From contig OY762721.1 in assembly GCA_963666345.1 (NCBI GenBank), forward strand, positions 992,001 to 1,056,000: a stretch of 64,000 nucleotides of DNA, written 5' to 3'. The notes beneath the pieces were generated by a model. The model saw only the letters and a list, made by a program, of their open reading frames with translations. It made no database searches and had not been told where the DNA came from. Both the position numbers and the translations under genes were made by a program. Every line of letters starts with the position of its first letter. Within the stretch, counting starts at the first letter, position 1. This stretch comes from Desulfatiglandales bacterium (GTDB lineage Bacteria; Desulfobacterota; DSM-4660; Desulfatiglandales; Desulfatiglandaceae). This document shows positions 31,218-62,823 of this stretch, piece by piece.

Positions 31218-31224
31218 CATGTCC

Positions 31225-40333: not shown

Positions 40334-40345
40334 CCCTGCATCACA

Positions 40346-41638: not shown

Positions 41639-41770
41639 CTGACTCCTCTCACAAAATATTTCATTCGCCTTCGCCCGAATACCCTGCAGCTTGATTTCAT
41701 TCTATTTATTCGGATTCCACTGAAAGATCAACCTGACCGTAGATTTGAATATTCTATTTATGAATATAGA

Positions 41771-41807
41771 ATAAAGGCCTGTCCCTTCTGAAAGGACAGA
41801 CCTTTAT
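41771..41807 (-). terminator. terminator after the glcF-like gene
   Basis: ataaaggcctgtcc...ggacagacctttat stem. Confidence 0.6.
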
Positions 41808-41841
41808 AGCTTATGTTTGTTTCATTTTTTTCGCAGGAATG

Positions 41842-42987
41842 TTATTCCATTGATTCAACGACTATTTCAGTCAGATCCTTTACCGCAAGGTCGGTATTGG
41901 TCCTTTTGGCCCTTGTCTGCATCGTCCTTACACACTGCTGACACGCCGTGATAACGGTCTGGGCGCCGACCCCCTTGATGCTGTCAAGCTTCATCTGGGC
42001 GACCTGGGCCGAGATCTCCGGCGCGGTCATCTCCACATTTCCACCGCCGCCGCAGCAGACCGAAAGATTCCGGTTAAGGGGAAGTTCGGTGAAATCGATC
42101 CCGGGCACAGCCTTGATTACCTCGCGGGGTTCCTCAAAAACGCCGCTGTTCCGCCCCAGGTCACATGGGTCATGATATGTGACCTTTCCTTCGATCGGCT
42201 TTGTAAGCTTGATGCGGCCTTCCTTTATCAGTTCCGCAATAACCTGACTGGCATGCATAAGCTCGACATCGGTATTATAGAGATGTTTCCATGTGTGGTA
42301 GCAGGACGGGCATGTAAACACCACCTTTTTGGCGCCCACATCGGCGACCTTTTTCAGGTTGTGCTCTTTCATGGCCTCCAGTTTGTCAGGCATGCCCGCT
42401 CCGATCAGGGGAAACCCGCAGCACCATTCGTCTCCGCCCAGGATGGTGAAGTTCACGCCTGCCTTGGTGAGGATCTTGGCCATATTGGCGGGTATCTTCT
42501 GGACCATCGGGAAAAATGACGCGACACACCCGACAAAGAAAACTATATCGGCCTTTTCTTTTTCAAAGCTCTCTTCCGGCAGATCCTTTATCAGTTCCTG
42601 CCATTCAGCCCTGTCTTCCTGATCGTCGTCGGAGATATTGTGAGTTCCTTCAAGGGTCTTGACCAGCCTGTCGGCGATCTTGGGATAAAAACCCTCATCC
42701 ACCTGGCATTCCCGGTTCTGAAAAATGAGGTCCTTGGTCTGTACGCTTGAAAGGCACACTGCCGTACAGGCACCGCACCCCAGACAAGTGAATATGGCCC
42801 TTTCGGTATCATCGCTCAAGGGCAGTTTGTTTTCGATGGCGAATCGTACTATGGCATTTCGCCCCCTGGAAGAATAGGCTTCTTCTTTCATCACCAGATA
42901 GGTGGGGCAGCTCGGCAAGCAGAATCCGCATTTATTGCACTTTGCAACCTCGTCATATGACAACTTCTTTAATTGAACAAGATTCAT
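41842..42987 (-). CDS. GlcF-like Fe-S subunit (2x[4Fe-4S] + CCG domains)
   Basis: CNKCGFCLPSCPTY, CLGCGACTAVC, EWCCG, YHDPCDLGR, CCGGGG. Confidence 0.88.
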   Translation of the reverse strand: MNLVQLKKLSYDEVAKCNKCGFCLPSCPTYLVMKEEAYSSRGRNAIVRFAIENKLPLSDDTERAIFTCLGCGACTAVCLSSVQTKDLIFQNRECQVDEGFYPKIADRLVKTLEGTHNISDDDQEDRAEWQELIKDLPEESFEKEKADIVFFVGCVASFFPMVQKIPANMAKILTKAGVNFTILGGDEWCCGFPLIGAGMPDKLEAMKEHNLKKVADVGAKKVVFTCPSCYHTWKHLYNTDVELMHASQVIAELIKEGRIKLTKPIEGKVTYHDPCDLGRNSGVFEEPREVIKAVPGIDFTELPLNRNLSVCCGGGGNVEMTAPEISAQVAQMKLDSIKGVGAQTVITACQQCVRTMQTRAKRTNTDLAVKDLTEIVVESME

Positions 42988-43030
42988 AAGAGTTTACCTC
43001 TTCGCGTCTACTCTGATTATGGATAATTGA

Positions 43031-44500
43031 TTAAAGACCTCCGATATAGCGCCCCTTGGACATGATACCCGCAGGATCGATCTCCTCCTTGATCCTCTTC
43101 ATGGCAACAAAATCGGAACCCGGTTTCCCCCACACCTTGAGTTTGTTTTTCAGCTCAACCGGTGCGTTTTGAACTACCATATTGCCTTCAACGCTGAGAC
43201 ATTTTTCAAGGAGTTGATCAAGGGCCTTGACGCCCTTTTCAACGGCATCTGAATCGTCTTTTGCAAGGAGAAGGTTGATATGGGAAATCCCGTTACCGGA
43301 ATGGGCCTGAACGGAAAACTCAAGTCCACTCTTGTCTAAGGTATCCTTTGCAAATTCCAGGAGCCCCTTCCACTCGGATATGGGATAGTTGTATTTAACC
43401 CCGATAAGCCCGGGGGATTTTGTCTTAAGCGTAGAATTGATATCGCTTACCTTCAACCAGAAAACCCTGTGGTCATCCTCTGAAAAGACTGCGTCATCGT
43501 CCGAACCAATGGCCTTTCCCATCTCCAGGATCTCTTTTTTCATTCGCTCCACCGCAGGGGTGAAGGCCTCAAAGGCTGCGGCAAGCAGACATCCGCCTTT
43601 TGCCACCTTAGGCACATCCTGCATGCCCAGAGCTTCGCAAGCCGTATCGTTCATCACCTCGACTGCAGCCGGAAGCAGTGTGGTTTCAAATATCTTTTCC
43701 GCACATGCCGCCGCATCTGCAAAAGATCCGAAGGATATTGCCACTGTTTCCATCTTCTCCGGAAGAGGAAGCAGGCGCAGGGTTATCTCGGTTATAACGC
43801 CCAGGGAGCCGAAGCTACCCAGCATCAGCTTGGAGATGTCGTAGCCTGATACGTTTTTGACCGTCTTTCCCCCGCTTCCGATTATATCGCCCTGGGGAGT
43901 TACAAAACGCACCCCAAGAATCTGATCCCTGGGCAGGTTGTAAAGCAGCCTCCTGGGGCCTGTCGAATTGGCAGCGATAATTCCGCCGATGGTCGCCTTC
44001 TCCGCATAGAGAGGGTCGATCGGAAGAAAACAACCGCTGTGTGACCTGTCCGAACAGATGAACTCATCGGCCTCGGTTTCCAGGTCCTCAATTGGAAGGT
44101 AGCATCTGTCTTCCTGGGTGCCGAGCCGGGCCTGGATGTCCCGGAATTTTACTCCGGCCTCAACGGTTATCGTCAGATTTGCCACATCCACATCCAGCAT
44201 ATGGTTCATACGCTTGGTGCACAGCACCAGGTCAAGATTCTTCGGCGGATTTCCCATGCCCATCTTTGTACCGCTTCCCCATACGACCATGGAGATATCG
44301 TTTTTATGGGCACAGCGCATCACCTCGGAAACCTCTTTAGTGTTTGCGGGAAATACCACTGCCCTGGGAGTCAAATCATCAACAGAATATTTGGCAACGG
44401 CATCCGGTTCTGATTTTATTTGCTCCCGGCCTATTATGCCGGAGAGCTCGTTAATAATCTCTGTGAAGTTTGCCACGTGAAAACTCCTTGGTTTCGGCAT
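43031..44500 (-). CDS. GlcE-like FAD-binding oxidoreductase subunit
   Basis: ATIGGIIAAN..GPRRLLY, GGKTVKNVSGYDISKLMLGSFGSLG; lacks the GEHG motif. Confidence 0.85.
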   Translation of the reverse strand: MPKPRSFHVANFTEIINELSGIIGREQIKSEPDAVAKYSVDDLTPRAVVFPANTKEVSEVMRCAHKNDISMVVWGSGTKMGMGNPPKNLDLVLCTKRMNHMLDVDVANLTITVEAGVKFRDIQARLGTQEDRCYLPIEDLETEADEFICSDRSHSGCFLPIDPLYAEKATIGGIIAANSTGPRRLLYNLPRDQILGVRFVTPQGDIIGSGGKTVKNVSGYDISKLMLGSFGSLGVITEITLRLLPLPEKMETVAISFGSFADAAACAEKIFETTLLPAAVEVMNDTACEALGMQDVPKVAKGGCLLAAAFEAFTPAVERMKKEILEMGKAIGSDDDAVFSEDDHRVFWLKVSDINSTLKTKSPGLIGVKYNYPISEWKGLLEFAKDTLDKSGLEFSVQAHSGNGISHINLLLAKDDSDAVEKGVKALDQLLEKCLSVEGNMVVQNAPVELKNKLKVWGKPGSDFVAMKRIKEEIDPAGIMSKGRYIGGL

Positions 44501-44534
44501 TAATTGAATAGCCGTTTAAAGTGTTCTTATACAA

Positions 44535-45929
44535 TTATGCCCCCTGGCATGGTTGATCCGGAATCATCTTACCGGGGTTGATAAAATCATCAGGATCAAA
44601 GGCATTTTTGATTCTACGCTCGAATTCAAGATCGGTATTTGAAAAAATGAAGCATGTCTCACCGAGCTTTTCCAGACCCACGCCATGTTCGCCGCTGATA
44701 GTTCCCCCTGCGTCCGCACAGAGCTTAAGGATTTCCGTAGATGCCTTGCGAACCCGTCTCAACTCATCCTCATCCCTTTCATCAAACATTATGAGGGGAT
44801 GCAGGTTACCGTCACCTGCGTGGAAGACGTTTCCTATCGGCAGGTCATACTTTTCCCCTATCCCGATAACGCCGCTGAGCACCTCGGGTAATTTTGTTCT
44901 CGGGACCGTGCCGTCACAGCAAAGGTAGCTGGGACGGACCTGACCTACCGCGCCGAAAGCGCCCTTTCTGCCGGCCCAGAGGATCGCCCTTTCCGCTTCA
45001 TCCTTTGCGAGCTTGACCTCACGGACATTGTTCTTTTTGCAGACCTCCATTACCTTGGCCGCGTTCTCATCCATACCTTCCGGCATTCCGTCAAGTTCGA
45101 TAATCAGCACGGCCGCTGCGTCCAGGGGATAACCTACCTTGACGGTTTCCTCAACGGCACGCATCACCGTGTTATCCATCATCTCCAGTGTCGCTGGTAC
45201 TATACCTTCGCTGATTACGGCTGAAACGGTGTTTGCACCGTCTTCAATAGTCTCGTATATGCAGAGCATGGTCTTTACGGCCTCAGGCACCTTCTCCAGC
45301 TTGAGGATCATCTTTGTCACGAGTCCCAAAGTACCCTCACTGCCCACGATTATTCCGGTGAGATCATATCCCGCGTTGTCCCTCGCCTTGCCGCCCGTCT
45401 GGATAACTGTGCCGTCATTCAGCACTACTTCCAGACCCTGAATATGATTTGTAGTAGTCCCGTATTTTAGACAGTGAGGACCTCCGGAGTTCTCGCCCAC
45501 ATTACCGCCGAGTGTTGAAACCTTCTGACTGGCCGGGTCCGGCTGATAGACATAACCCAGCTTGAGCATCTCATTTTGAAGATCCAGGGTGATGATGCCC
45601 GGCTGCACAGTTACGGTACGGTTTTTTAGATCTACATCCAGGATATTGTTCATCCGGGAAAAATGCACGACGATTCCCCCCTCAATGGGTATCGTACCGC
45701 CTGTAAGGTTCGTTCCGGAACCCCTTCCCAGGATGGGAACCTTTTCCTTGTATGCCAGCGCCATGATCTTTGAGACTTCCTCGGTTGAATTGGGCAGTAC
45801 CACGACATCGGGCATACCCTTATCAAGAGAAGCATCATAGCTGTAAAGCATACGGTCCATCTCCGAAGTCAATACGAACTCGGGATCGACTATTTCCTTC
45901 AGGCTCTCAATAAGCTTTTCTATTTCCAT
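44535..45929 (-). CDS. glcD: GlcD-like FAD-linked 2-hydroxyacid dehydrogenase subunit
   Basis: RGSGTNLTGG, PDPASQKVSTLGGNVGENSGGPHCLKYG, NVFHAGDGNLHP, ISGEHGVG. Confidence 0.88.
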   Translation of the reverse strand: MEIEKLIESLKEIVDPEFVLTSEMDRMLYSYDASLDKGMPDVVVLPNSTEEVSKIMALAYKEKVPILGRGSGTNLTGGTIPIEGGIVVHFSRMNNILDVDLKNRTVTVQPGIITLDLQNEMLKLGYVYQPDPASQKVSTLGGNVGENSGGPHCLKYGTTTNHIQGLEVVLNDGTVIQTGGKARDNAGYDLTGIIVGSEGTLGLVTKMILKLEKVPEAVKTMLCIYETIEDGANTVSAVISEGIVPATLEMMDNTVMRAVEETVKVGYPLDAAAVLIIELDGMPEGMDENAAKVMEVCKKNNVREVKLAKDEAERAILWAGRKGAFGAVGQVRPSYLCCDGTVPRTKLPEVLSGVIGIGEKYDLPIGNVFHAGDGNLHPLIMFDERDEDELRRVRKASTEILKLCADAGGTISGEHGVGLEKLGETCFIFSNTDLEFERRIKNAFDPDDFINPGKMIPDQPCQGA

Positions 45930-46051
45930 AAATCAATCCTCTTCAGAATAGAGTAAAAGGAGGCACCGGAATTTTCGGATTCCTGCGCCTCCTCAAGAAG
46001 TTCATTTACCCCTTTGAATCACAAAGGGTTTTTTTCATCTAAAGTATCTGC

Positions 46052-46951
46052 CTATTTTCCGATCTTGGCCTCGGCAGCCTTGATTTCTTCCATGGTCCTG
46101 AGGATCTGCAGTGCATTTTCATACACGGGTGTGTCAACCATTTTGCCCTTATAGGCCACGGCTGCGGCACCCTTTGCAATGCCTTCTTCCTCAAATACCT
46201 TCTTTACGCCCTCAGCCCATTCCACATCGTCTGGTGAAGGTGTGTAAAGTTCGTGTGAAGGCTCGATCTGACCCGGGTGGATAAGCATGCGGCCTTCATA
46301 ACCCATCTGGCAGCCGTCATTGGTGCTCTTGATAAAGGCGTCCTTGTCGGTGAAATTGACAAAGGGACAGTCTATTGCGACGCATCCCGCGGCACGCGCA
46401 GCAACGGGCACGCGATAGCGGCCGTAGAGCTGCTCTACCGCTTCGTCGGTCAGGGTTACGCGCATGTCCTTGCAGTAATCAACGGCGCCGAAGATAAGGG
46501 AGTTACAGCGCGGGCTTGCGCTTGCACACTCGTAGGCGTGAACCATACCCAGGGCGGTTTCGATGAGCATCTGGATCTTCACCGTACCCACTTTCATCCC
46601 CCTTCTCTGCTCCAGTTCTTCCAGTTTCCAGTCCAGACGCTGCACATGCTCGGGCAGACCTGTCTTGGCAAGGCATACGCCGTCCAGTCCGGGATATACT
46701 ATCGCCTCGAGGTCGTCGTTGGTCATAAGGGTTTCCCAGTTGTTGATCCTTACATAAAGATTGGGAGCCGCCTGGTCCGCCCTGCTGGTCTTGAGGTATT
46801 CCCGGATCATCTCCCTGCCTTTGGCTTTTTCAGCGGGGGGAACCGAGTCTTCAAGGTCGAGAGTCAAAACATCACAGGCGATGCTCGGCGCCTTGCCGAC
46901 CATCTTCTCATTGTTGCTTGGTACGTAAAAAACGGATCTCATAACAGTCAT
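46052..46951 (-). CDS. CitE/malyl-CoA lyase family CoA-ester lyase
   Basis: MRSVFYVP, LDLEDSV, VRIN, LIETALG, FGAVDY, IHPGQI, GKMVD. Confidence 0.9.
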   Translation of the reverse strand: MTVMRSVFYVPSNNEKMVGKAPSIACDVLTLDLEDSVPPAEKAKGREMIREYLKTSRADQAAPNLYVRINNWETLMTNDDLEAIVYPGLDGVCLAKTGLPEHVQRLDWKLEELEQRRGMKVGTVKIQMLIETALGMVHAYECASASPRCNSLIFGAVDYCKDMRVTLTDEAVEQLYGRYRVPVAARAAGCVAIDCPFVNFTDKDAFIKSTNDGCQMGYEGRMLIHPGQIEPSHELYTPSPDDVEWAEGVKKVFEEEGIAKGAAAVAYKGKMVDTPVYENALQILRTMEEIKAAEAKIGK

Positions 46952-46963
46952 GGTAAATCCTCC

Positions 46964-47860
46964 TTACATGTTAAGTAATTTTTTGATGGTTGGTGCTATT
47001 TCTTCCGGGCTGTCGACAACGCTTACTCCGGCATCATTAAAGGCTGCGATCTTGCTCTTTGCAGACCCTTTTCCCCTCTCCACGATGCTGCTCGCATGGG
47101 AAAATCTCATGCCCTCAGGCGCCCACGCGCCTGCAATAAATGCCACCAAAGGTTTGGTGTATTCGCCCTTTGCTACTGTTTCCGCGGCTTCTTCTTCAAG
47201 AGTACCACCGATCTCTCCGAATATTGCAACCGCCTTTGTCTGTTCATCCTTTTCATACTCTTTCAGGACATCTGCCATTGACAGACCCAGGACCGGTTCG
47301 GTTCCGATATGCATGGCCGTGCTTATTCCAAGGCCCGCGACCTTCAGTGCCCAGGGAACAGTTCCCGACTGACCGCCACTTCTGGAAATGACGCCTATCG
47401 GACCCGGCTCGAAAAGCATATTAGCCCAGTCGGCACTTCCTCCAAGCCATCCCATTGCGGCCTTTCCTGGGCTTATAAGGCCGAGGCTTCCTGGCCCAAG
47501 CAGTTTAACTCCGTTTTTAAGGGCGTAGTTTACCATATCCATAACATCCTGAACCGGGATTCTTTCCACAGGGGACCCGATAAACTTTACCCCCGCATCT
47601 ACGGCCTCATATACCGCGGTCTTGAGACCGGGGCCGGGAATAAAGGTCACGCTGGCATCGACCTCGCCGACGTGTCTGATCGCTTCCTTCATGGAGTCGA
47701 ACACCGGGATGCCAAGGACCTCCTGACCTCCCCGGCCAGGGGTTACGCCTGCCACGACCTTGGTCCCATATCCTTTCATAAAGGCAGTACGGAGGGAGCC
47801 TTCCCTGCCTGTCATGCCCTGGACAATTACTCTGGTATTTTCATCTAACAGTATCGACAT
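46964..47860 (-). CDS. acyl-CoA ligase (ADP-forming) alpha subunit, SucD/MtkB-like
   Basis: VQGMTGREG, GVTPGRGG, ISRSGG, FGEIGG, RFSHA (phospho-His); divergent from canonical SucD (GPGSLG for GPNCPG). Confidence 0.85.
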   Translation of the reverse strand: MSILLDENTRVIVQGMTGREGSLRTAFMKGYGTKVVAGVTPGRGGQEVLGIPVFDSMKEAIRHVGEVDASVTFIPGPGLKTAVYEAVDAGVKFIGSPVERIPVQDVMDMVNYALKNGVKLLGPGSLGLISPGKAAMGWLGGSADWANMLFEPGPIGVISRSGGQSGTVPWALKVAGLGISTAMHIGTEPVLGLSMADVLKEYEKDEQTKAVAIFGEIGGTLEEEAAETVAKGEYTKPLVAFIAGAWAPEGMRFSHASSIVERGKGSAKSKIAAFNDAGVSVVDSPEEIAPTIKKLLNM

Positions 47861-47871
47861 ATTATCCCCCG

Positions 47872-48156
47872 TTATTCTGTTCCGTGCTTTTTCCTGTATT
47901 CAGCCAAGCCCTCAATGGGCACCTCTATGGTGATTGCCGAATTACCCCTGAACCAGCACTCATATTCACAGGCAAAGCATTCCGTGCCCTTCCTTGCAAG
48001 TTCGCTTTCGCTCAGCTCAACCGTAGGCTTTCCATCCTTCAGCACGAGAATCCCGCGGCTGTATGTCTTGCACGCCTCTATACAGGCATGGGTAGTACAG
48101 CCTTCGCATTTATCTTCATCGATTATAACTTTTATCGTTCTTTCGTTGAATTCCAT
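47872..48156 (-). CDS. small ferredoxin-like protein
   Basis: CEGCTTHACIEAC and CFACEYEC; tightly spaced between the ligase subunits, with RBS. Confidence 0.8.
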   Translation of the reverse strand: MEFNERTIKVIIDEDKCEGCTTHACIEACKTYSRGILVLKDGKPTVELSESELARKGTECFACEYECWFRGNSAITIEVPIEGLAEYRKKHGTE

Positions 48157-48170
48157 AAGAATCCTCCCCT

Positions 48171-49427
48171 TTATGCTACTCCTCGTTCTTTTCTATACTC
48201 CTCTACGAGCGCTTTCATCCTGCCTCCGATAAAAGATGCGTCATAGACATGCTCTCTGTCATAAATCTCTATGCGGCTACCGAAACCAGCGAGACCTTCC
48301 TTGAGGATCTCCTGAGACTCTTTCTCTTTGTTGCCGCAGAGGAGGATTACCACGGGAAATCCCGGTTTCTTAGGTAATTCCTCACGAAGTGCCTTGACAA
48401 GACCGTGGGCGTGATGCCACTGCTCCTGATTGGCCATCATGAAACCTGCGAGGATATAGCCTTCTATTCCGGGCTGCGAAAGGATAAGCTTGACAACGCG
48501 GTATACCTTCGATGCCGTGGGGTTACCGCTTGTATCGGCAAAGTCGGCGACCTTGAGTCCCACCCTGTTCATTGCGTCCATGCCGAGCATGGCGGCACCG
48601 CCACCGATTCCGTGGAATCCGACATAACCGCCCTTGCTTACTTCTTCGGGGGAGGCCATCTCAGCCACATAACTTGTACCGCGAAAATCCGTTTCCTCGA
48701 AAGACCATCCCATGAGGTCGAAATCGGTAGGTTCCTTCAGGAATTCACGTCCGATCTTGATACCCAGTTCAGGATGCCTGAACAGGGCCTGATCGTCAAC
48801 CGCCATACGGCAGTCCGCAGCCAGCACCCGGCCGTCTTCAGTCAGCACCAGCGGGTTTATCTCCAGTGAGCGACAGTCATATTCCTGGAACATCTTAAAG
48901 AGTTTGAATACGACATCCGAGAACTGGCGGATAAGCTTGCCCTTGACTCCCATGGAAAGGACCATGTCGATCGTGTCATAGGGCATAAGGCCCTTGATAA
49001 CGTCCACATTCAGGAGGGCCATCTTGTCTTCGGATACCGATTCGATTTCCACACCCCCTTCAGGGCTGAACATGATAACCGGAGCCCTGACATCCTGGGC
49101 GGAGTTGATGATCACACCGGCGTAAAACTCCTGCTTGATGGCCAGCTTTTCTTCAACAAGCACCATCTTTACCTCCAGCCCGCGGTGCACCTTTCCGATA
49201 ATGGATTCCGCCGCCTGAGCCGCTTCTTCGGGAGTATCGGCAAATTTGACGAAACCGCCTTTACCTCTTCCTCCCGCCCATACCTGGGCCTTTACCACGA
49301 CAGGTTTGCCGATCTTCTCGGCGGCCTGCTTAGCTTCTTCGGGTGACTTTGCCACAATTCCTTCAGGGATAGGAATACCGGACTTTTTGAAAAGCTCTTT
49401 TCCCTGATATTCGTAAAATTTTGCCAT
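48171..49427 (-). CDS. acyl-CoA ligase (ADP-forming) beta subunit, SucC/MtkA-like ATP-grasp
   Basis: EYQGKELF, VVKAQVWAGGRGKGG, EGGVEIE, LEINPL; GGGAAMLGMD/ADFADTSG replace SucC NGAGLAMATMD/ANFLDVGG. Confidence 0.87.
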   Translation of the reverse strand: MAKFYEYQGKELFKKSGIPIPEGIVAKSPEEAKQAAEKIGKPVVVKAQVWAGGRGKGGFVKFADTPEEAAQAAESIIGKVHRGLEVKMVLVEEKLAIKQEFYAGVIINSAQDVRAPVIMFSPEGGVEIESVSEDKMALLNVDVIKGLMPYDTIDMVLSMGVKGKLIRQFSDVVFKLFKMFQEYDCRSLEINPLVLTEDGRVLAADCRMAVDDQALFRHPELGIKIGREFLKEPTDFDLMGWSFEETDFRGTSYVAEMASPEEVSKGGYVGFHGIGGGAAMLGMDAMNRVGLKVADFADTSGNPTASKVYRVVKLILSQPGIEGYILAGFMMANQEQWHHAHGLVKALREELPKKPGFPVVILLCGNKEKESQEILKEGLAGFGSRIEIYDREHVYDASFIGGRMKALVEEYRKERGVA

Positions 49428-49482
49428 TTTGCCTCCCTTAACTAAAATAATCGTGTTATTTGTTTACCATTGAAGATGTTTC

Positions 49483-49500
49483 ATGGTAATACCATTTGAC
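49483..49500 (-). promoter_or_regulatory. FadR-type operator
   Basis: Minus strand GTCAAATGGTATTACCAT; palindromic core ATGGT-N3-ACCAT; repeated at 55736 and 55865. Confidence 0.7.
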
Positions 49501-49659
49501 GTTTTATGATTAGCAATAAATATTAAAGGGTGTCAAGCACTTTCTTCCAAACATATAAGGGGTTTCAAATAATAAAAAACGGATAGAACAAGGCCTTGAT
49601 TTCGGAAATAAATGTTTTATAGGCCGATCAGGGTGATGGCCCGTGGTTATATTTTTTAG

Positions 49660-49794
49660 GCAAGTAGCATGCCAAAAGTGTAAATTATTTTATAGTTTTC
49701 CAACCTATTGATATAACAGGACTATATCTAATGAAAGGCCTCACCTGAGTCACAGGATCAGGATTATTTGTCAACTTTATTTACATATTGTAAA
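49660..49794 (-). promoter_or_regulatory. sigma54 promoter + IHF site + upstream element for the ligase-lyase-glc operon
   Basis: TGGCATGCTACTTGC (49660-49674), TATCAATAGGTTG (49701-49713), tgtcaactttatttacatattgtaaa (49769-49794). Confidence 0.75.
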
Positions 49795-50068
49795 AATATT
49801 GGCCAGACTCTTGCCAAACATGAGGGTCAAAAAAAATTATAAACGATAACCGCCTTTTTCTTTTGCAATAAAAGAAGAAATTTTAGTAGAATATTCTATT
49901 ATTAACTTACGCTTAAAGATCGACTCCCTTTTATATCGCCCTCGTCCAGGTATCAGCTATTTTCTTCATTAATTTAGGTGCGGCAGAGATTGAAGAAGCC
50001 TTTTTTAATTGACAATGGACAAGCGACCCTGCTAGTAGAACTTCTTAAACACGAGGTATAATGGTAAT

Positions 50069-50860
50069 ATGGTCAGTCCACTATTTAAACCGATTAAACA
50101 GGAAAAGCTATCCGCAAAGATAGCTAATCAGATCAAAAAACTTATCGTTGACGGCAAGCTGAAGCCGGGAGACCCTCTTCCACCTGAAAGAAAACTGATC
50201 AGTCTTCTGAATGTGAGCCGGCCTTCCCTGCGAGAGGCGCTCAAATCACTTGTCGGCATGGGATTTCTGGAAGTAACCCAGGGCAACCGCACGATTGTCA
50301 AATCACTTGCATCGGGACGGATACTCGAGCCGCTCGATTACCTGCTCAAGGATGATATACAAACGGCCTTTGAGATTATTGAAGTACGCAAGGCCATTGA
50401 GGCATGGAACGCCTTTTACGCGGCGAGAAGGGCCTCGAATCATGACATTGCAAGGCTTGAAGAGAATATTTCTTCAATGAAAGAGCTGATGCAGGATAAA
50501 GATTTTACACTTGGAAAGGTGGATGCAGACTTTCATCTGTCCATCAGCGAGGCGACCCATAATAAGATTCAGACCCATATAATGTTTACCATCTACGATA
50601 CCCTGAAGACATTCATCGGAAAATATTACGGCAACATCGATTTCACCGATATCTATGAACAGCACTGTAATGTATTCCATGCCATAAGGGACAAAAATCC
50701 GGATAGGGCCAGAATGGCGATACTGGAACATCTCAATTATGTTGAATCCCGCATAAAGGACGCGGTCCGGTTTAGTGATAATGAGAAAGGCAGGGAACAG
50801 GAAGAGGCGGATAATCCGAACGGCAAAGGTGTTGAAGGGCTGTTCACCCCTGAACACTGA
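50069..50860 (+). CDS. FadR/GntR family regulator (GlcC/LldR-like)
   Basis: LKPGDPLPPERKL, VSRPSLREAL, DADFHLSI..ATHN FCD domain. Confidence 0.92.
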   Translation: MVSPLFKPIKQEKLSAKIANQIKKLIVDGKLKPGDPLPPERKLISLLNVSRPSLREALKSLVGMGFLEVTQGNRTIVKSLASGRILEPLDYLLKDDIQTAFEIIEVRKAIEAWNAFYAARRASNHDIARLEENISSMKELMQDKDFTLGKVDADFHLSISEATHNKIQTHIMFTIYDTLKTFIGKYYGNIDFTDIYEQHCNVFHAIRDKNPDRARMAILEHLNYVESRIKDAVRFSDNEKGREQEEADNPNGKGVEGLFTPEH

Positions 50861-50976
50861 TAGACTCGCATTTTTAATATGCCGTAACTCCGTAGCACTC
50901 TTCGTCTTAGGAAAAACGACCTGATAATTCAAAAAATCTAATTTTTAGATGAAATTCAAATGAAAGGAGAAATAAG

Positions 50977-51915
50977 ATGAAAAAGAAGGCAGCCGTTATC
51001 GGAGCGGGTAATGTGGGAGCCACTGCTGCAATGCGTTTGGCTGAAAAAGAACTGGCCGACGTCGCTATCATAGATATACTGGAGGGGGTACCGGCCGGAA
51101 AGGCCCTCGACATGATGGAAGCGGCCCCTATTGAGAAACACGATTCCAAGGTAATAGGGTCAACAGCTGATTACAGCCCCGCAAAGGATTCAGACGTCGT
51201 AATAATTACCGCCGGAATTCCCAGAAAACCTGGTATGAGCCGGGACGATCTTCTGGCCACCAACATGGGAATAATGGAGACGGTTACAAAGGAGGTTGCG
51301 GCAGTTGCACCTGATTCCATCATTATTATTGTAAGCAATCCATTGGATGCCATGTGCCATGTTGCATATGAGGCCAGCGGATTCCCTAAAAACCGCATAC
51401 TCGGCATGGCCGGAGTACTTGATTCGGCAAGGTTTCGCGCCTTTATCTCAATGGAACTGGATGTATCTGTTGAAAATACCCACGCGTTCGTGCTTGGCGG
51501 TCATGGAGATACCATGGTTCCGCTTCCCCGCTATTCGACCGTAGCGGGGATTCCCATAACCGAGCTTATGTCACAGGAAAGGATTGACGTCCTGGTAGAC
51601 AGGACAAGAAACGGCGGTGCGGAAATTGTCGGCCTTCTCAAGACCGGAAGCGCCTTCTATGCACCATCCTCCGGCGCGGTAGCCATGGCCGAGGCGATAC
51701 TGAAGGACCAGAAGAAGATCCTTCCTTGCGCGGCAATGCTCTCAGGTGAATATGGCATCAATGACCTGTTCATCGGAGTTCCCGTTAAGCTGGGAGAAAA
51801 CGGCGCTGAAGAAATAATTGAAATCAACCTTACCGAAGAGGAGAAAAAGGGCCTTGATCACTCTGCTGACGCGGTAAGGGGTCTTGTTGAAGACATGAAG
51901 AGACTCAAGGGATAA
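50977..51915 (+). CDS. mdh: malate dehydrogenase (LDH-like)
   Basis: [51 protein letters not shown]. Confidence 0.96.
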
Positions 51916-51945
51916 AAGGCGTATATTCCCCCTTTAACTCTCACA

Positions 51946-51980
51946 CCCCCGGCGATTATTTCGCCGGGGGTTTTTTATTT
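51946..51980 (+). terminator. Rho-independent terminator after mdh
   Basis: cccccggcga-ttatt-tcgccggggg followed by tttttt. Confidence 0.85.
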
Positions 51981-52062
51981 TAAAAGGACCCAAGTGTTCA
52001 ATCGAATGACAGCAGACCAAAGAAAGACCCTGCCCGTTCATACACCCTCTGATTGCTAACTC

Positions 52063-52127
52063 GTGTTCATCCATAAATCAAGATTTATGCACTCATGCTA
52101 TCAGCTCTCAGCTGTCAGTAAAACATT
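52063..52127. repeat. short palindromic element, copy 2
   Basis: gtgttcatccataaatcaagatttatgcactcatgctatcagctctcagctgtcagtaaaacatt, matching 32614-32685. Confidence 0.65.
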
Positions 52128-52228
52128 ATATATGCGGCCACTTTTCCGTTAAAACCAGAGAAGGCAGGAGAGGGTAGAGTACCTATCTTCAAATGACCCG
52201 GGTCAGGACCGTGATGACTGAGAACGGC

Positions 52229-52269
52229 AAAAAAAAGGCCGGTCCCCTTTTCCAAGGACACCGGCCTTT
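52229..52269 (-). terminator. Rho-independent terminator after oadB
   Basis: aaaggccggt...accggccttt stem with T-run on the minus strand. Confidence 0.75.
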
Positions 52270-52290
52270 CACCAATCAATCGTCAATATA

Positions 52291-53418
52291 TTAACCGAGA
52301 ATAGCCAAAAAAACCCCGGCAGCAACTGCCGAACCTATTACACCGGCCACATTCGGTCCCATGGCCGCCATGAGCGGATTGACCCTTCCCTTTGTACTAC
52401 CCGACACATAAACCTGAACCACCCTTGCCGCCATGGGCACGGCAGACACACCGGCCGCCCCTATGCATGGGTTTATCTTTTTACCGGAAGGCAGAAAGAC
52501 GTTCATAAGCTTTGCGAACAGCACACCGCCCGCCGTACTGAAACCAAAGGCGACACCGCCCATGACAAGTATGCTTATGGTATCAAAGGTGAGAAAATGT
52601 TCGGCATCCATTGTCGCGCCTACCACAAGACCCAGGAATATGGTTACGATATCGATCAGGGCACCGCCGGCCGTCTTCTTGAGCCTCTCGGTAACAGTAC
52701 ACTCTCTGAGAAGATTCCCAAACATAAGCATCCCGATAAGAGGTGCGCTTGAGGGAATTGCCAGAGAGGCGAGGATACCGGTTGTGATCGGGAAAATAAT
52801 CACTGCCCTTTTAGATACAGGCCTTGCCTGGGGCATGTCTATTTCCCTCTCTTTTTGGGTTGTAAAAAGCCTCATTATGGGAGGTTGTATGATAGGAACC
52901 AGCGACATATAGCTGTAGGCCGCAACCGCTATCGGTCCCAGAAGATGAGGCGCCAGTTTGCTCGACAGAAATATGGAGGTAGGCCCGTCAGCTCCGCCGA
53001 TGATGCCGATAGCGGCCGCCTCTTCAGGCGTGAACCCGAAGATATAGGCTGCTCCAAGGGCCGCTGTAAATATCCCCAGTTGTGCGGCGGCACCAAGCAG
53101 AAATGTCATGGGTCTGCCCAGAAGGGGCCTGAAATCTGTAAGCACCCCGACTCCCATGAAAATAACAGGGGGAAGCAGTTCGGTCTTTATTCCCATCCTG
53201 TAGATGAGATTCATGAGACCGTCCATATGCGCCCCCATCTCCCCAAGAGGCAGGTTGGCCAGGATAGTACCGAATCCGATAGGAATCAGCAGAAGAGGTT
53301 CATATCCTTTTCTTATGGCGAGGAAAATGAGAATCCCCGCCACTATGAACATTGCTATGTTGCCCCAGGTCAGATTGGCAAATCCGGATTTCGTTATAAG
53401 CTGAACGATAGTTTCCAT
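52291..53418 (-). CDS. oadB: Na+-translocating decarboxylase beta subunit
   Basis: YEPLLLIPIGFG, IGIIGGADGPT, IAVAAYSYM, AGVSAVPMAARV, MGPNVAGVIGS. Confidence 0.93.
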   Translation of the reverse strand: METIVQLITKSGFANLTWGNIAMFIVAGILIFLAIRKGYEPLLLIPIGFGTILANLPLGEMGAHMDGLMNLIYRMGIKTELLPPVIFMGVGVLTDFRPLLGRPMTFLLGAAAQLGIFTAALGAAYIFGFTPEEAAAIGIIGGADGPTSIFLSSKLAPHLLGPIAVAAYSYMSLVPIIQPPIMRLFTTQKEREIDMPQARPVSKRAVIIFPITTGILASLAIPSSAPLIGMLMFGNLLRECTVTERLKKTAGGALIDIVTIFLGLVVGATMDAEHFLTFDTISILVMGGVAFGFSTAGGVLFAKLMNVFLPSGKKINPCIGAAGVSAVPMAARVVQVYVSGSTKGRVNPLMAAMGPNVAGVIGSAVAAGVFLAILG

Positions 53419-53421
53419 GAA

Positions 53422-55287
53422 TTATGCCTTTTTTGAAATAGTAACAATCGGAGTTGTAGCATCCACTTCATCGCCAATTTTCGCATTCACCGCACTTACA
53501 ACACCTTCAACAAGGGTCTTTATGTCATGGGTCGCCTTCATGGCCTCGACCTGTGCAACGGCCTGCCCCTCGGTAACCGTGTCTCCCACCGCCACGAGTA
53601 TGTCTACCAGATCGACTGAACCTGCGAACGAAGAGTAAACAGCCTCTTCCTCACCGCCTGCAGGAGCCGCCGCAGGTGCTGCTGCCGCTGCGGCAGGGGC
53701 CGCGGATGCTGCTGCTCCGGATGCCTCGATGGTTACCATGAAAGTCCTTGTGGCCTTGCCTTCCTTTACAATGCACTTGGAGGTAACCGGCCCTGTAATA
53801 GCCTGGACTGCTGCAGGAGCCGCCGCCTTTACTTCGGCAGCCTTGGGTTCTTCTTTCTTCTTGAGAGGGACATCCACCTTGCCGTTTCCAAGGAGGAACT
53901 TGAGTCCTTCATTTGCCGCCATCTTCTTGCCTGGCACCATCGCGGAGACCACGAAGAAGATGTTTTCCTCTGTGAGGGGAAGGTTGTTTTCCTCAAGGGC
54001 CTTCTTTGCCTCCGGGATCGGGTCGGAAACCTCGGCAAGAGGATCACCTTCAAAGGGTTCGATCCCCAGTTGATCCGCCGCCTTTTTGACGACATCGGGA
54101 TCAGGCGGCAGAGGCGGCCTTCCGTAATAACCAAGCACTGCCCTTCCGTAACCAGCCTCTATCTTCTCCCATCTGCCGTACATGACATTGTTGAATGCCT
54201 GCACCCAGTACTGCTGACTTCCGGGAGTAACGCTCGTCCATGCGCCGCCCGCCTCCACAACAACGGGGAACTCGGCCAGCACCTGGCTGTATTTGTCAAG
54301 AAGTCCAGCCTTCACCATCATATGGACGTTAGGTCCGATTGCTCCTCCCGGCATTGGAAAACCAACCACGCGGGCATCTGCGCTCGTGGTTACCGGATTG
54401 AAGGCATAGTCCTTCATCAGGTCGTTCAGCATATCCTCGATCATCTGCATCTTGGACACATTGATATTAAGGGAATAACCGGTTCCCCTGAGCGCGTGAG
54501 CCATTGAGCGTACGTCAGGCTGACAGGTCCCGCTTGCCAGAGGACGCACGGAAAGATCCACGGCATTTACCCCGCCTTCGATGCCAGCCACCATCTGTGA
54601 TACGGCCATGCTCGCGGTATCGTGAGTGTGCAGCCACAGATCCATATCAGCAGGCATATATTTTCTTATTGCTATGGCGGTTTCGTAACATGTCCTGGGA
54701 TCGGTTGTTCCACTTGCATCCTTCATACAGATGCTGTCGACCTGGATATCTGATTCAAAGAGCCTTTTCACGATATTTGAATAGAATTCGGCGTTATGCA
54801 CCTTGTCCGAATGAAATGGCAGTCCCATCATGGACACGCACACCTGATGATGCATTCCTGCCTTGACAATGGGCCGGCCTGTCTTGACCAGGTTCTCGAC
54901 ATCGTTCATGTAGTCGAAATTCCTGTCATAGGTCGTACCGTATTTGGCCATCAGCTTTGCCTGCAGTTCCAGGACCTCAGGGGTCTGCATGGTCAATGTT
55001 ACACCGGATACCGACCTGGTAAGGATCTGAAGATCGATCCCGGGCCCCACGGCGTCCTTCATCGCCTGCATGGTCTCAAAAGGGCTCTCGTTAAGGTAGA
55101 AAAGGGGTGCCTGATATCTTGCACCGCCACCGAATTCAAAGTGTTTTACCCCCGCCTCCTTGGCAGAGGCGATCATGGCCGGCAGATAATCGTTGAGTCT
55201 TACCTTCCCGCCGAAAGCACTCTGAAGACCGTCTCGGAAGGGCATGAATTGCGTCTTTATTTCCTTGGGCTTTTTCGTATAAATCAT
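53422..55287 (-). CDS. oadA: oxaloacetate decarboxylase alpha-like subunit (carboxyltransferase + biotin carrier)
   Basis: FRDGLQS, KDASG, LHTH, MPGG, SVTPGSQ; Ala/Pro linker; EAMK biotinylation site. Confidence 0.85.
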   Translation of the reverse strand: MIYTKKPKEIKTQFMPFRDGLQSAFGGKVRLNDYLPAMIASAKEAGVKHFEFGGGARYQAPLFYLNESPFETMQAMKDAVGPGIDLQILTRSVSGVTLTMQTPEVLELQAKLMAKYGTTYDRNFDYMNDVENLVKTGRPIVKAGMHHQVCVSMMGLPFHSDKVHNAEFYSNIVKRLFESDIQVDSICMKDASGTTDPRTCYETAIAIRKYMPADMDLWLHTHDTASMAVSQMVAGIEGGVNAVDLSVRPLASGTCQPDVRSMAHALRGTGYSLNINVSKMQMIEDMLNDLMKDYAFNPVTTSADARVVGFPMPGGAIGPNVHMMVKAGLLDKYSQVLAEFPVVVEAGGAWTSVTPGSQQYWVQAFNNVMYGRWEKIEAGYGRAVLGYYGRPPLPPDPDVVKKAADQLGIEPFEGDPLAEVSDPIPEAKKALEENNLPLTEENIFFVVSAMVPGKKMAANEGLKFLLGNGKVDVPLKKKEEPKAAEVKAAAPAAVQAITGPVTSKCIVKEGKATRTFMVTIEASGAAASAAPAAAAAAPAAAPAGGEEEAVYSSFAGSVDLVDILVAVGDTVTEGQAVAQVEAMKATHDIKTLVEGVVSAVNAKIGDEVDATTPIVTISKKA

Positions 55288-55289
55288 TT

Positions 55290-55511
55290 TTACCTCTTAC
55301 CTCCTCCTACTTCCTCAATCTTGGTTATTTTTGTCCCTGGATGCACATATGCATAGGCCGAGCCTATGGCGGCGACAACAGCGGGATCGGTTCCATTCTT
55401 TTTCTCGGGGAAAACGGCTATAAGCAGGCGCATCGCAACAGCCAGAAAGACAAGCACCGCAAATACCGAGACAAAAGACGAAATGCAAATCATAAAAAGA
55501 TTCGCTTCCAT
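55290..55511 (-). CDS. oadG: decarboxylase gamma/delta subunit
   Basis: Single TM helix + DPAVVAAIGSA; immediately upstream of oadA. Confidence 0.75.
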   Translation of the reverse strand: MEANLFMICISSFVSVFAVLVFLAVAMRLLIAVFPEKKNGTDPAVVAAIGSAYAYVHPGTKITKIEEVGGGKR

Positions 55512-55733
55512 TTATAACACCTCATTAAATCAATTTATTAAAAGTTACGGTAAACAGAATACTATTTTACTTTCCAGAGACTAGGCATATATTATCTAAT
55601 CAAAACCTTGTCAAGGCTAATCTCTATCACCGGCTGACGATCCGGATATGCCGCACTGTGCTACACTCCTGTAAGGGGCCGCAACACAACACCAACTGCA
55701 GGCCTTATTACTCCTAAGCCTTATTCATGTTTA

Positions 55734-55881
55734 TGGTCAAATGGTAAAACCACTTAGATTCACTACAGCAAGAAGAAATAAAAATCAAGCATTTTATATC
55801 GAATAAATCATAAAAACATGGGAGTTAAAGCTGAACATGGACAACATGGCTCTGAGGCGTTTTGGTCAAATGGTAAAACCA
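55734..55881. promoter_or_regulatory. two identical FadR-type operators
   Basis: 19-bp TGGTCAAATGGTAAAACCA at 55734-55752 and 55863-55881. Confidence 0.75.
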
Positions 55882-55903
55882 AATAGGCCGTCTCCATTTA
55901 ATG

Positions 55904-56031
55904 GCAAATATCATGCCACATTCCATTGTCTTTTTCCAATCCATTAAATTTACCAAAAAACAAGGTCTTCCCGTCAAAAAGGAAAGACCTTGAAAGGACT
56001 TTTCGTGTCAATTTTTTTTACACAATGTAAA
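55904..56031 (-). promoter_or_regulatory. sigma54 promoter + upstream element for oadGAB
   Basis: TGGCATGATATTTGC (55904-55918); tgtcaattttttttacacaatgtaaa (56006-56031), 22/26 identical to 49769-49794. Confidence 0.75.
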
Positions 56032-56053
56032 CTTTCATAACTGAAACCTTACC

Positions 56054-57916: not shown

Positions 57917-58044
57917 TTATTTATTCCCTTTAAAAACATCTTCCCTCTTACAGTATAGATGTGAAAAATTGTGGCTATCCTCTAATTTATTTGGTTAAAA
58001 TAGGTCCCAGGGCTCCAGGATTCGAAGGTTCAAGTGGATGATGT

Positions 58045-58743: not shown

Positions 58744-58774
58744 CTTTATTTCCCAATTCTAAAACCGCTCAATC

Positions 58775-60076: not shown

Positions 60077-60138
60077 TTCCTCATCCCGCCTTTCTCAAAC
60101 CTATTAATATAGAAGGTAAAAGGTCTTTTCACGTTCCT

Positions 60139-60933: not shown

Positions 60934-60971
60934 TACCTTCCTCCTGATAGATCCTTGTTTTTAATAAATTC

Positions 60972-61982: not shown

Positions 61983-62027
61983 CTATGTTTCCTCCTGACT
62001 TCACTTTGCAAATGTATCATTTTATAC

Positions 62028-62771: not shown

Positions 62772-62823
62772 TGAGTCACCTATCTTCCTGAAAACACTTG
62801 TTTTACATTTATGCCCATAGAGG

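Follow-up and report, generated by a model that had tools for sequence, protein, structure and literature searches.

The stretch of DNA analyzed here, 64,000 nucleotides of a Desulfatiglandales genome (the window, to whose positions all plain coordinates refer), holds 12 genes of interest at positions 41842-55511, which we read as a likely malyl-coenzyme A (malyl-CoA) pathway for the anaerobic oxidation of glycolate. An initial annotation, made from the letters of the window alone, had outlined such a pathway, and all 12 of its open reading frames (ORFs) were found again at the same positions. Seven genes lie on the minus strand and run without interruption from 49427 down to 41842. The first is ligB (48171-49427), encoding a SucC-like β subunit of 418 amino acids (aa) and proposed here as one subunit of an ATP-forming malyl-CoA synthetase. 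It is followed by a gene for a 94-aa ferredoxin-like protein with seven invariant cysteines, a putative iron-sulfur third subunit of the ligase (47872-48156), and by ligA (46964-47860), encoding a SucD-like α subunit of 298 aa in which the phosphohistidine, His255, is kept. Next come a gene for a CitE/CLYBL-type lyase of 299 aa, the candidate malyl-CoA lyase (46052-46951), and three genes for a dehydrogenase: glcD (44535-45929), for an FAD-linked 2-hydroxyacid dehydrogenase subunit with FAD_binding_4 and FAD-oxidase_C domains; a glcE-like gene (43031-44500), whose 489-aa product has FAD_binding_4 in two stretches and FAD-oxidase_C; and a glcF-like gene (41842-42987), for an iron-sulfur subunit with Fer4_8 and two CCG domains. 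Intergenic gaps of 11-122 nucleotides (nt) and a terminator-like hairpin with a 17-pair stem behind glcF (41771-41807, minus strand) bear out the single tight operon that had been described. Upstream of ligB, 57-73 nt before its ATG, an operator-like site, GTCAAATGGTATTACCA (49484-49500, minus strand), contains the palindrome TGGT-N3-ACCA.

Divergent from the ligase operon, a gene for a GntR/FCD regulator of the FadR subfamily (50069-50860, plus strand) is followed by mdh (50977-51915, plus strand), for an NAD-dependent malate dehydrogenase, with a terminator-like hairpin after it (51945-51971). Beyond these, a second minus-strand unit extends from 55511 to 52291 and comprises oadG (55290-55511), for an OadG-like small subunit of 73 aa; oadA (53422-55287), for a divergent carboxyltransferase of 621 aa with a C-terminal biotinyl domain; and oadB (52291-53418), for the β subunit of a Na+-translocating decarboxylase. 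An operator-like 19-mer, TGGTCAAATGGTAAAACCA, occurs twice upstream of oadG on the plus strand (55734-55752 and 55863-55881), the second copy 129 nt from the first. Families were called with Pfam (E ≤ 0.001) and with the curated cut-offs of NCBIfam, and only two of the 12 proteins, Mdh and OadB, pass such cut-offs. The catalytic proteins that fall below the equivalog cut-offs are therefore described here as relatives of the named enzymes and not as members of those equivalogs. A scan for sigma-70 promoters was uninformative, with 21 sites against 16.3 expected.

The first four genes of the operon form a core whose arrangement recurs widely. The initial annotation had treated the gene set as a unit from this window only; across the best 80 of 151 ligB relatives in species-representative genomes, the core order of β subunit, ferredoxin-like protein, α subunit and lyase is kept in 66 loci (numbered with the prefix L), spread over at least three phyla, including Desulfofustis glycolicus and Moorella/Neomoorella, and with median gaps of 12-24 nt. 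Another 11 loci are cut by contig ends or have one gene under the 70% coverage filter. This conservation of gene order is far beyond chance. At 72-88% LigB identity, the holders are Desulfobacterota, including D. glycolicus DSM 9705, Desulfospira joergensenii and dozens of metagenome-assembled genomes (MAGs) from sediment. At 56-58%, they are Moorella mulderi, several Neomoorella, Bilophila wadsworthia, Dehalobacter, Desulfosporosinus, Desulfitobacterium and two MAGs of Actinomycetota. GlcD-type genes adjoin the core in 45 of the 80 loci; in D. glycolicus, the dehydrogenase consists of an 860-aa GlcD-GlcE fusion and a 446-aa Fer4/CCG protein. A malic enzyme gene directly follows the lyase gene in 17 of the 19 loci with LigB below 70% identity, which are of the Firmicutes/Bilophila type, and the other two loci end at the lyase.

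Some of these loci carry additional genes. In D. glycolicus, the genes for the lyase and the GlcD-GlcE fusion are separated by those for a Thiamine_BP-family protein and a class I methyltransferase (L019:13409-14508). In Neomoorella carbonis, ligB is closely preceded by genes for ComA (phosphosulfolactate synthase) and ComB (2-phosphosulfolactate phosphatase) (L069:7589-9264), and a group II intron reverse transcriptase/maturase gene sits right after the malic enzyme gene in Dehalobacter and Desulfosporosinus (L071:15691-17088 and L073:15323-16732).

LigB and LigA share with succinyl-CoA synthetase (SCS) an ATP-grasp β subunit, a CoA-binding α subunit and the phosphohistidine, but differ from SucCD in several respects. 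LigB has an ATP-grasp_2 domain (PF08442; 182 bits, residues 4-194), and Pfam did not find the PF00549 Ligase_CoA domain in it at the threshold given above; it scores 261 bits against the SucC model (NF001913; cut-off of 370) and 187 bits against the MtkA model (NF010647; cut-off of 604). It also gives a sub-threshold match to Citrate_bind (22 bits against a cut-off of 27, E = 9.6e-5) and a weak match to the ATP-grasp domain of ATP-citrate synthase. LigA, with CoA_binding (85 bits), Succ_CoA_lig and Ligase_CoA domains, reaches 286 bits against the SucD model (NF004230; cut-off of 336). Its His255, invariant in 35 sequences, aligns with the histidine of GHAGA in the genome's own SucD, where LigA has SHASS. 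In LigB, the clade-invariant motif G328-FMMANQEQWHHAH-341 stands in place of the canonical FGGILRCD stretch, which we take to be part of the succinate site of SucC, and residues 222-262 contain an insertion of about 30 residues relative to canonical SucC. The earlier remark that the ligase motifs are unlike those of canonical SucCD is thus well founded. Among solved structures, the β subunit of Thermus SCS is the best relative of LigB (234 bits, aligned to residue 376); citryl-CoA synthetase (6hxq) and Escherichia coli SucC score 163 and 164 bits.

The initial annotation had allowed that this ligase might be the only SucCD of the genome. That is not the case: a canonical SucCD elsewhere passes its cut-offs (526 against 370 bits and 456 against 336 bits), and its subunits are 32% (SucC to LigB) and 45% (SucD to LigA) identical to those considered here, for which reason LigB and LigA are not the cell's succinyl-CoA synthetase. 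A quick maximum-likelihood analysis of 142 sequences gave a tree that has SucC-type references only and no MtkA reference, because none of 60 scanned representatives passes the MtkA cut-off; in it, the module-linked LigB sequences form one clade (Shimodaira-Hasegawa-like approximate likelihood ratio test [SH-aLRT], 100). This clade is nested in a clade of 45-47 rows (94 and 98), itself within a separate clade of 76 rows (100) that stands apart from the sequences passing the SucC cut-off. Judging by gene context, LigB and LigA may couple the interconversion of malyl-CoA and malate to that of ATP and ADP.

The 94-aa protein encoded between the two ligase genes had been listed as a ferredoxin. 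The gene is indeed there, but the role of its product is most likely that of a ligase subunit. No Pfam family was found for it, and a protein-atlas search returned just unnamed clusters and generic Fer4 look-alikes at under 0.9. Its seven cysteines (C17-x2-C20-x4-C25-x3-C29 and C60-x2-C63-x3-C67) are invariant in 75 homologues. In 12 of the 150 best LigB-homologue cluster representatives, a homologous domain is fused to the C terminus of the β subunit (E values of 4e-20 to 3e-4), and all 11 fusions that were placed in the tree fall in the clade of 45-47 rows that contains the core clade. The fused forms have a cysteine where the clade of the window has an invariant Gly57. Because this gives eight cysteines in the fused relatives against seven here, the sequences suggest two [4Fe-4S] clusters in the former and a 4Fe plus 3Fe pattern in the latter.

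Structure prediction points in the same direction. A predicted complex of LigB, LigA and the 94-aa protein scored 0.86 in all three runs, and the best of three controls scored 0.00; with our own alignments and a rough calibration, 0.86 is reached by 116 of 157 solved complexes and by 2 of 215 mismatched pairs. Contacts agreed to at least 94% between runs, and the predicted local distance difference test (pLDDT) value of the partner was at least 88. The predicted interface comprises LigB residues 235-249, 304-319, 337-345 and 374-378 and so takes in both the clade-specific insertion and the G328-FMMANQEQWHHAH-341 motif. The model supports binding, short of showing it. Because of the β fusions and the complex prediction, we regard the 94-aa protein as probably a third subunit of the ligase and not a free electron carrier. 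Our best guess is that its cluster serves as a structural or redox-sensing cap beside the acid-binding site.

The lyase has an HpcH_HpaI domain (141 bits, Pfam). Its best NCBIfam match is CitE (TIGR01588; 184 bits against a cut-off of 443), and among solved structures it comes closest to human CLYBL (126 bits) and M. extorquens Mcl (123 bits). The accessible text of Zarzycki and Kerfeld (PMC3832036) gives, as residues conserved in the CitE-like superfamily, an Arg, two Mg ligands (Glu/Asp), a Glu-Asp pair and a lid Asp, and all of these have counterparts in the alignment of the lyase with CLYBL, in which LDLED, VRIN, IETALG, FGAVDY and MVDTP pair with LDCED, VRVN, VETAMG, FGGEDF and MIDMP. The same text describes a 30- to 40-residue insertion specific to malyl-CoA lyases (PMC3832036); the alignment of the lyase with M. 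extorquens Mcl breaks into two blocks (query 5-166 with target 15-175, and 174-280 with 206-311). Of the CitE/Mcl-like lyase in the initial annotation, the HpcH/HpaI fold and the catalytic residues stand, while the protein itself is CLYBL-like and lacks the Mcl insertion. It would thus lie outside both known Mcl clades (the Rhodobacter and Chloroflexus types), yet as far as its sequence goes, it can work as a malyl-CoA lyase. A second HpcH-type lyase gene in the genome (C1:2500364-2501116), with a major facilitator superfamily (MFS) transporter gene and no ligase gene beside it, was judged unrelated to the pathway.

The dehydrogenase subunits also score below their NCBIfam cut-offs (GlcD-like, 517 bits against 568 for TIGR00387; GlcE-like, 133 against 284; GlcF-like, 93 against 333), and the best NCBIfam matches of the GlcF-like protein are TfrB and LdhH. 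The three-subunit domain architecture of GlcDEF is nevertheless complete: an FAD-linked oxidase, a second FAD_binding_4 protein and a Fer4 protein with two CCG domains. Because the genome has many GlcD-like and CCG paralogues, the dehydrogenase family alone cannot name the substrate. One other GlcD-like gene (40% identical) lies about 40 kb off, together with genes for two CCG proteins and a GcvH-like protein (G000:C1:1092133-1096259, locus L104); this cluster further contains two lipoate-protein-ligase-like genes, radical S-adenosylmethionine (SAM) genes and a multiheme cytochrome gene, and it adjoins a tripartite ATP-independent periplasmic (TRAP) DctPQM system. Right behind the glcF terminator lies a gene for an iron-containing alcohol dehydrogenase (Fe-ADH; 40346-41638, minus strand; 430 aa), whose weak best match is lactaldehyde reductase. 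Homologues of Fe-ADH at 70-73% identity are encoded beside or within the module in L001 and L028, and through this enzyme, glycolaldehyde or ethylene glycol could enter the pathway.

The remaining enzyme genes of the locus encode Mdh and OadGAB. Mdh passes its model (TIGR01763; 453 bits against 352) and gives a single tblastn match in the genome, a single contig of 4.16 Mb with an estimated completeness of 96.7%. OadB, likewise single copy, has an OAD_beta domain (PF03977; 487 bits) and passes TIGR01109 (455 bits against 191). The OadA-like protein has HMGL-like, PYC_OADA and Biotin_lipoyl domains, including the lysine of the AMKA motif, and scores 271 bits against TIGR01108 (cut-off of 757); its best solved relatives, PycB (172 bits), transcarboxylase 5S (169 bits) and Vibrio cholerae OadA (163 bits), all act on pyruvate or oxaloacetate. 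The Ala/Pro-rich linker of the OadA-like protein carries an in-frame 12-nt insertion (53671) and a 3-nt deletion (53819) in contigs of a close relative from the RNA libraries. The OadG-like protein, encoded directly upstream of oadA, gives a weak MmdD match (E = 1.5e-4) and has a homologue of 54-56% identity in L001, L006 and L048. A second, far more canonical 5S-type carboxyltransferase is encoded at 34082-35605 (minus strand); it passes the PycB model (647 bits against 402), scores 616 bits against the OadA model (cut-off of 757), is 28% identical to the OadA-like protein and has no biotinyl domain. Elsewhere in the genome there are genes for a nifJ-type pyruvate:ferredoxin oxidoreductase (PFOR; 1,920 bits), as the initial annotation had assumed, and for DsrA (574 bits). 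Malic enzyme was not found in this genome by a search whose positive control was detected in 13 of 14 reference genomes, and malate synthase was likewise not found in this genome.

Oad genes of at least 66% identity adjoin the module in L001, L004, L006, L028, L048 and L053, and mdh does so in L001, L004 and L005. The malic enzyme family is present in none of five genomes with module-adjacent Oad and in four of five module genomes of Desulfobacterota without it, including D. glycolicus, the completeness of the MAGs in both groups being unknown. In this comparison, malic enzyme and module-linked Oad are complementary across genomes.

A shared sequence motif links the ligase operon to the oad unit. 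The sequence GTCAAATGGTNNNACCA, which holds the palindrome TGGT-N3-ACCA, has three matches in the 4.16 Mb of the genome, one before ligB and two before oadG, and the exact 19-mer that occurs twice before oadG would be expected 0.02 times by chance in the window. Of the 57 loci with LigB of at least 70% identity, 48 have TGGT-N3-ACCA in the 300 nt before ligB, as do 2 of 19 more distant loci; the background over all loci is 0.078 sites per kb. In the closest relative (L001), there is again one site before ligB and two before oadG, and the oad genes run divergently from ligB, as does gntR, in L028, L048 and L053. A GntR/FCD homologue (48-76% identity) adjoins the module in 22 of the 80 loci. The regulator of the window has GntR (64 bits) and FCD (86 bits) domains, and its best NCBIfam matches, LldR (163 bits), PdhR (149 bits), NanR and GlcC (124 bits), are all under their cut-offs. 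Palindromes of the TGGT-N3-ACCA type are the usual operator of the GntR/FCD family, and because of this we propose the regulator as the protein that would bind the candidate sites. The idea of a regulon, raised in the initial annotation as joint induction of the ligase and oad operons, gains from a motif that is common to the ligB and oadG promoters and occurs nowhere else in the genome.

In four metatranscriptome runs, all of one study of marine sediment, 37-44% of the sampled words of the locus are present; runs with small shares were left aside. Contigs from these RNA libraries, at 95-99% identity, cover 41815-49537 with all seven genes of the ligase operon, 50625-51944 with mdh and 52316-55624 with oadGAB, and single contigs span the lyase, ligA, ferredoxin-like and ligB genes (46050-48824) and the glcD, lyase and ligA genes (45765-47119). 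Cover is slight or absent over 40000-41800 (Fe-ADH), 49616-50216, most of gntR and 55626-58000 (the RACo gene). Cover ends near the predicted borders of the units, to which we give no weight, as contigs can show neither transcript ends nor silence. Because the contigs carry no information on level, end or strand, and DNA may be present in such libraries, the cover is only a hint of in situ transcription of the three units in a close relative.

Taken together, we consider it likely that the genes of the locus specify the malyl-CoA pathway, by which a sulfate/sulfite reducer would oxidize glycolate (and glyoxylate) anaerobically in a cycle on acetyl-CoA. In such a pathway, the GlcDEF-like enzyme would oxidize glycolate to glyoxylate, with the electrons probably passing to the quinone pool or the sulfate-reduction chain. 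The CitE/CLYBL-type lyase would then join glyoxylate and acetyl-CoA to malyl-CoA, from which the three-subunit ligase would form malate, CoA and ATP at the expense of ADP and Pi. This ligase would consist of the SucD-like α subunit with its phosphohistidine, the SucC-like β subunit with a remodeled acid site and the seven-cysteine subunit docked on the C-terminal domain of β. Malic enzyme, which is the step after malyl-CoA synthetase in the biochemically defined pathway, is absent from this genome, and Mdh would instead oxidize malate to oxaloacetate. Membrane-bound OadGAB would decarboxylate oxaloacetate to pyruvate and CO2 with export of Na+, and PFOR would return pyruvate to acetyl-CoA with release of a second CO2. 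Overall, each glycolate would yield two CO2, six reducing equivalents, one ATP by substrate-level phosphorylation and a sodium gradient. The GntR/FCD regulator, acting on TGGT-N3-ACCA before ligB and oadG, would bring the units together as one regulon. Substrates, flux direction, iron-sulfur content, Na+ pumping and the operator-binding protein are all what we infer in this scheme. The cycle had been proposed in the initial annotation in much this form; each of its steps has a matching gene by family assignment, and in silico, it draws support from gene content, synteny, the shared motif and the absence of alternatives. We put forward more tentatively a wider idea: the ligase may be an ATP-forming malyl-CoA synthetase of a new class with an obligatory iron-sulfur third subunit, the GntR operator may tie Mdh and the Na+-pumping Oad to it, each glycolate may thus give ATP at the substrate level as well as a sodium gradient, and marine sulfate reducers may thereby form an efficient anoxic sink for algal glycolate.

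Several observations weigh against this pathway. The catalytic proteins score under the curated cut-offs for SucC, SucD, MtkA, CitE, GlcD/E/F and OadA. The genome holds at least six GlcD-like and at least eight CCG-type paralogues, and such GlcD/CCG pairs serve D-lactate in relatives. The lyase is without the malyl-CoA-lyase insertion, so that about 30 residues of Mcl are left unmatched, its alignment with CLYBL is unbroken, and CLYBL, its closest solved relative, acts on citramalyl-CoA too. SucCD-like ligases with quite different substrates exist, for example, SauCD for sulfoacetate, as described in the accessible part of PMC10413351. In three loci (L012, L047 and L049), the ligase stands without a lyase in the remaining flank. 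No transporter was found at the locus. A TRAP DctP/DctM pair lies divergently upstream of the module in D. glycolicus, and its homologues flank the module in 26-31 of the 80 loci; the best homologue in this genome (46-48% identity) is about 35 kb from the locus, near the GlcD/CCG/GcvH cluster, and it was set aside as a module transporter. The RNA-library contigs are no proof of transcription, and the absence of malic enzyme from genomes with adjacent Oad is weakened by the unknown completeness of the MAGs. Module-adjacent Oad is rare (6 of 80 loci), as is module-adjacent mdh (3 of 80), and both are single copy here and may be housekeeping genes that are merely located beside the operon. An OAD_beta gene is also present somewhere in all five comparison genomes without module-adjacent Oad, because of which the Oad pump itself cannot be called rare.

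These last points underlie the best surviving alternative, in which mdh and oadGAB are genes of central metabolism that adjoin a glycolate/malyl-CoA operon by chance, and no dedicated second energy-conserving step exists. That they are the only copies in the genome, their rarity beside the module elsewhere and the presence of OAD_beta in each comparison genome are all what would be expected from such a chance arrangement. We nevertheless consider it unlikely: one operator motif stands before both ligB and oadG and at no other place in the genome, and L001 shows the same pattern. The divergence of oad and gntR from ligB in L028, L048 and L053 also speaks for a linkage, as does the distribution of malic enzyme, which is missing here and from all five genomes with linked Oad but found in four of the five others.

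It is less probable still that the ligase and lyase are a citryl-CoA (or citramalyl-CoA) synthetase and its lyase, together resembling ATP-citrate lyase, so that oxaloacetate would pass to Oad or, in reverse, the pair would make ATP, and the GlcDEF-like enzyme would serve another 2-hydroxyacid. Such an assignment could account for the sub-threshold matches of LigB to Citrate_bind and the ATP-citrate-synthase ATP-grasp domain, for its near-equal scores against 6hxq and SucC, for CitE as the best NCBIfam match of the lyase and for an oxaloacetate decarboxylase as neighbor. It does not fit the co-operonic GlcD-type dehydrogenases of 45 of the 80 loci or the occurrence of the module in glycolate specialists, and what follows the lyase in 17 of 19 loci is a malic enzyme and not an enzyme specific to oxaloacetate. 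Nor is there a citrate transporter, CitD/CitF or aconitase at the locus, and the lyase remains far under the cut-off of the CitE model (184 against 443 bits).

We regard as very improbable a flux in the opposite direction, in which malate, ATP and CoA would give malyl-CoA and from it glyoxylate and acetyl-CoA, the glyoxylate being reduced to glycolate in glyoxylate respiration or assimilated. In the serine cycle, the ligase reaction and the lyase reaction can each run both ways, and a tartronate-semialdehyde-reductase-like gene (36498-37388) and a phosphoglycerate dehydrogenase (PGDH) gene (37779-39371) lie nearby. A coupling of hydrogen-dependent glyoxylate reduction to ATP synthesis is reported for Syntrophobotulus glycolicus in the accessible text of PMC3156405. 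However, Oad and malic enzyme decarboxylate and are thus partners for catabolism, the organism has PFOR and reduces sulfate/sulfite, and no gain is evident here from ATP spent on glyoxylate. Finally, although GlcD/E/F scores below the cut-offs, numerous paralogues, the switch of substrate class seen in SauCD and ComA/ComB upstream of ligB in N. carbonis (L069) would be compatible with a dehydrogenase for D-lactate or another 2-hydroxyacid and a ligase and lyase for another acyl-CoA, such as β-methylmalyl-CoA or that of a sulfonated acid, this is a distant prospect, given that pyruvate derived from lactate needs neither ligase nor lyase, that the SauCD context (SauS, SauXYZ and IseG) is absent here and that the malic enzyme and Mdh partners indicate malate as the product.

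The malyl-CoA pathway that we favor is old biochemistry and not new. In the accessible text of PMC6313629 and PMC8092247, the few known anaerobic users of glycolate are D. glycolicus, S. glycolicus, Moorella sp. HUC22-1, M. thermoacetica and Lachnospiraceae strain 19gly4. According to the same text, the anaerobic route goes via malyl-CoA, as shown by enzyme activities in S. glycolicus, Moorella sp. HUC22-1 and other isolates (studies cited in PMC6313629 and PMC8092247). It runs through the same reactions as proposed here, from glycolate dehydrogenase, malyl-CoA lyase and an ATP-forming malyl-CoA synthetase to the decarboxylation of malate to pyruvate and the oxidation of pyruvate, and genomes of D. 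glycolicus and of Moorella/Neomoorella carry the module; that pathway, however, uses malic enzyme, where the window has Mdh and a putative Na+-pumping Oad, plus a probable iron-sulfur-type ligase subunit. Our literature search, whose coverage left out most subscription journals and the primary papers, returned no paper in which genes are named for the anaerobic route from glycolate via malyl-CoA, and the word "malyl" does not occur in the accessible part of the S. glycolicus genome paper (PMC3156405). Specific to this window are Mdh and a putative Na+-pumping Oad in the place of malic enzyme, the operator restricted to the locus, the separate canonical SucCD and the presence in RNA libraries.

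Other characterized systems share parts of the scheme. MtkAB and Mcl of serine-cycle methylotrophs, with Mcl also known from Rhodobacter and Chloroflexus (PDB 5ugr, 4l9y and 4l80), perform the same proposed chemistry with a SucCD-like ligase and a CitE-superfamily lyase, but MtkAB spends ATP, where the ligase here is proposed to make it, and the ferredoxin-like subunit and the missing Mcl insertion set the locus apart. From SucCD, the ligase is distinguished by the LigB insertion at 222-262, the remodeled FMMANQEQWHHAH stretch and its separate 76-row clade. Citryl-CoA synthetase CcsAB with citryl-CoA lyase (Hydrogenobacter, 6hxq) and ATP-citrate lyase follow the same two-step logic of ligase plus lyase, whereas the partners of the module here are glycolate-type dehydrogenases and malic enzyme. 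Citrate fermentation in Klebsiella likewise places a CitE-family lyase beside Na+-pumping OadGAB; in contrast, the locus described here has no CitD, CitF or citrate carrier, its OadA is divergent, and oxaloacetate would come from malate via Mdh. We further take the lyase of the window to be of the CitE type, in contrast to a citrate-synthase-type lyase in the CcsAB system. The GlcDEF/GlcC system of E. coli has the same three-subunit architecture, and here, too, a GntR/FCD regulator is encoded divergently, but the subunits fall below the cut-offs and the regulator scores higher against LldR and PdhR than against GlcC. E. coli routes glyoxylate to malate synthase, the enzyme that was not found in this genome. 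SauCD is also a SucCD-like ligase of anaerobes that has been recruited to a substrate other than succinate (accessible part of PMC10413351). It was purified as a 1:1 two-subunit enzyme and has SauS, SauXYZ, TauF and IseG as its context, and a ferredoxin goes unmentioned in that part of the paper (PMC10413351). Unlike SauCD, the copy of the module in Bilophila (L065) comes with a ferredoxin-like gene, a lyase, a malic enzyme and GlcD/CCG genes.

Among the compounds exuded by algae and other autotrophs, glycolate is a major one (accessible text of PMC3156405), and its anaerobic breakdown is known just from enzyme activities in a few isolates, according to the accessible text of PMC6313629. Pathway genes would make this breakdown traceable in genomes and metatranscriptomes. 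The change from malic enzyme to Mdh and a sodium pump would mean extra energy from a low-yield substrate. Synthetic glyoxylate and C1 pathways now depend on the ATP-consuming MtkAB, and an ATP-forming malyl-CoA synthetase would be of interest for them. To our knowledge, the succinyl-CoA-synthetase-type family has been thought to need no metal cluster. An iron-sulfur subunit on such a ligase is therefore unexpected and raises the question of redox control or substrate gating.

The surroundings of the locus contain further genes that touch on C2 and C1 metabolism. On the plus strand, a cluster at 22807-33533, accompanied by an IclR regulator gene at 21743-22501, encodes two large flavin/iron-sulfur oxidoreductases, small ferredoxins and a tungsten-type aldehyde:ferredoxin oxidoreductase (28618-30558). 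We speculate that this cluster and Fe-ADH turn C2 aldehydes into glycolate. Closer to the operon, the tartronate-semialdehyde-reductase-like gene noted above is on the minus strand (239 bits against a cut-off of 341), and the PGDH gene, on the plus strand, is full length (617 bits against 454), has another copy elsewhere in the genome and also adjoins the module in L001; the two may provide a link to glyoxylate or serine assimilation. Between the PGDH and Fe-ADH genes, a 303-aa ORF (39422-40333, plus strand) has no Pfam or NCBIfam match. At the other end of the window, a minus-strand cluster of the corrinoid methyltransferase type (56054-63996) encodes a RACo-like activase, a DUF1638 protein, a pterin-binding protein and a URO-D/MtaA-like protein, and a second GntR/FCD regulator and a TRAP DctM protein are encoded there as well, as is a LarA-like isomerase of the nickel-pincer type, which passes the group 22 model.

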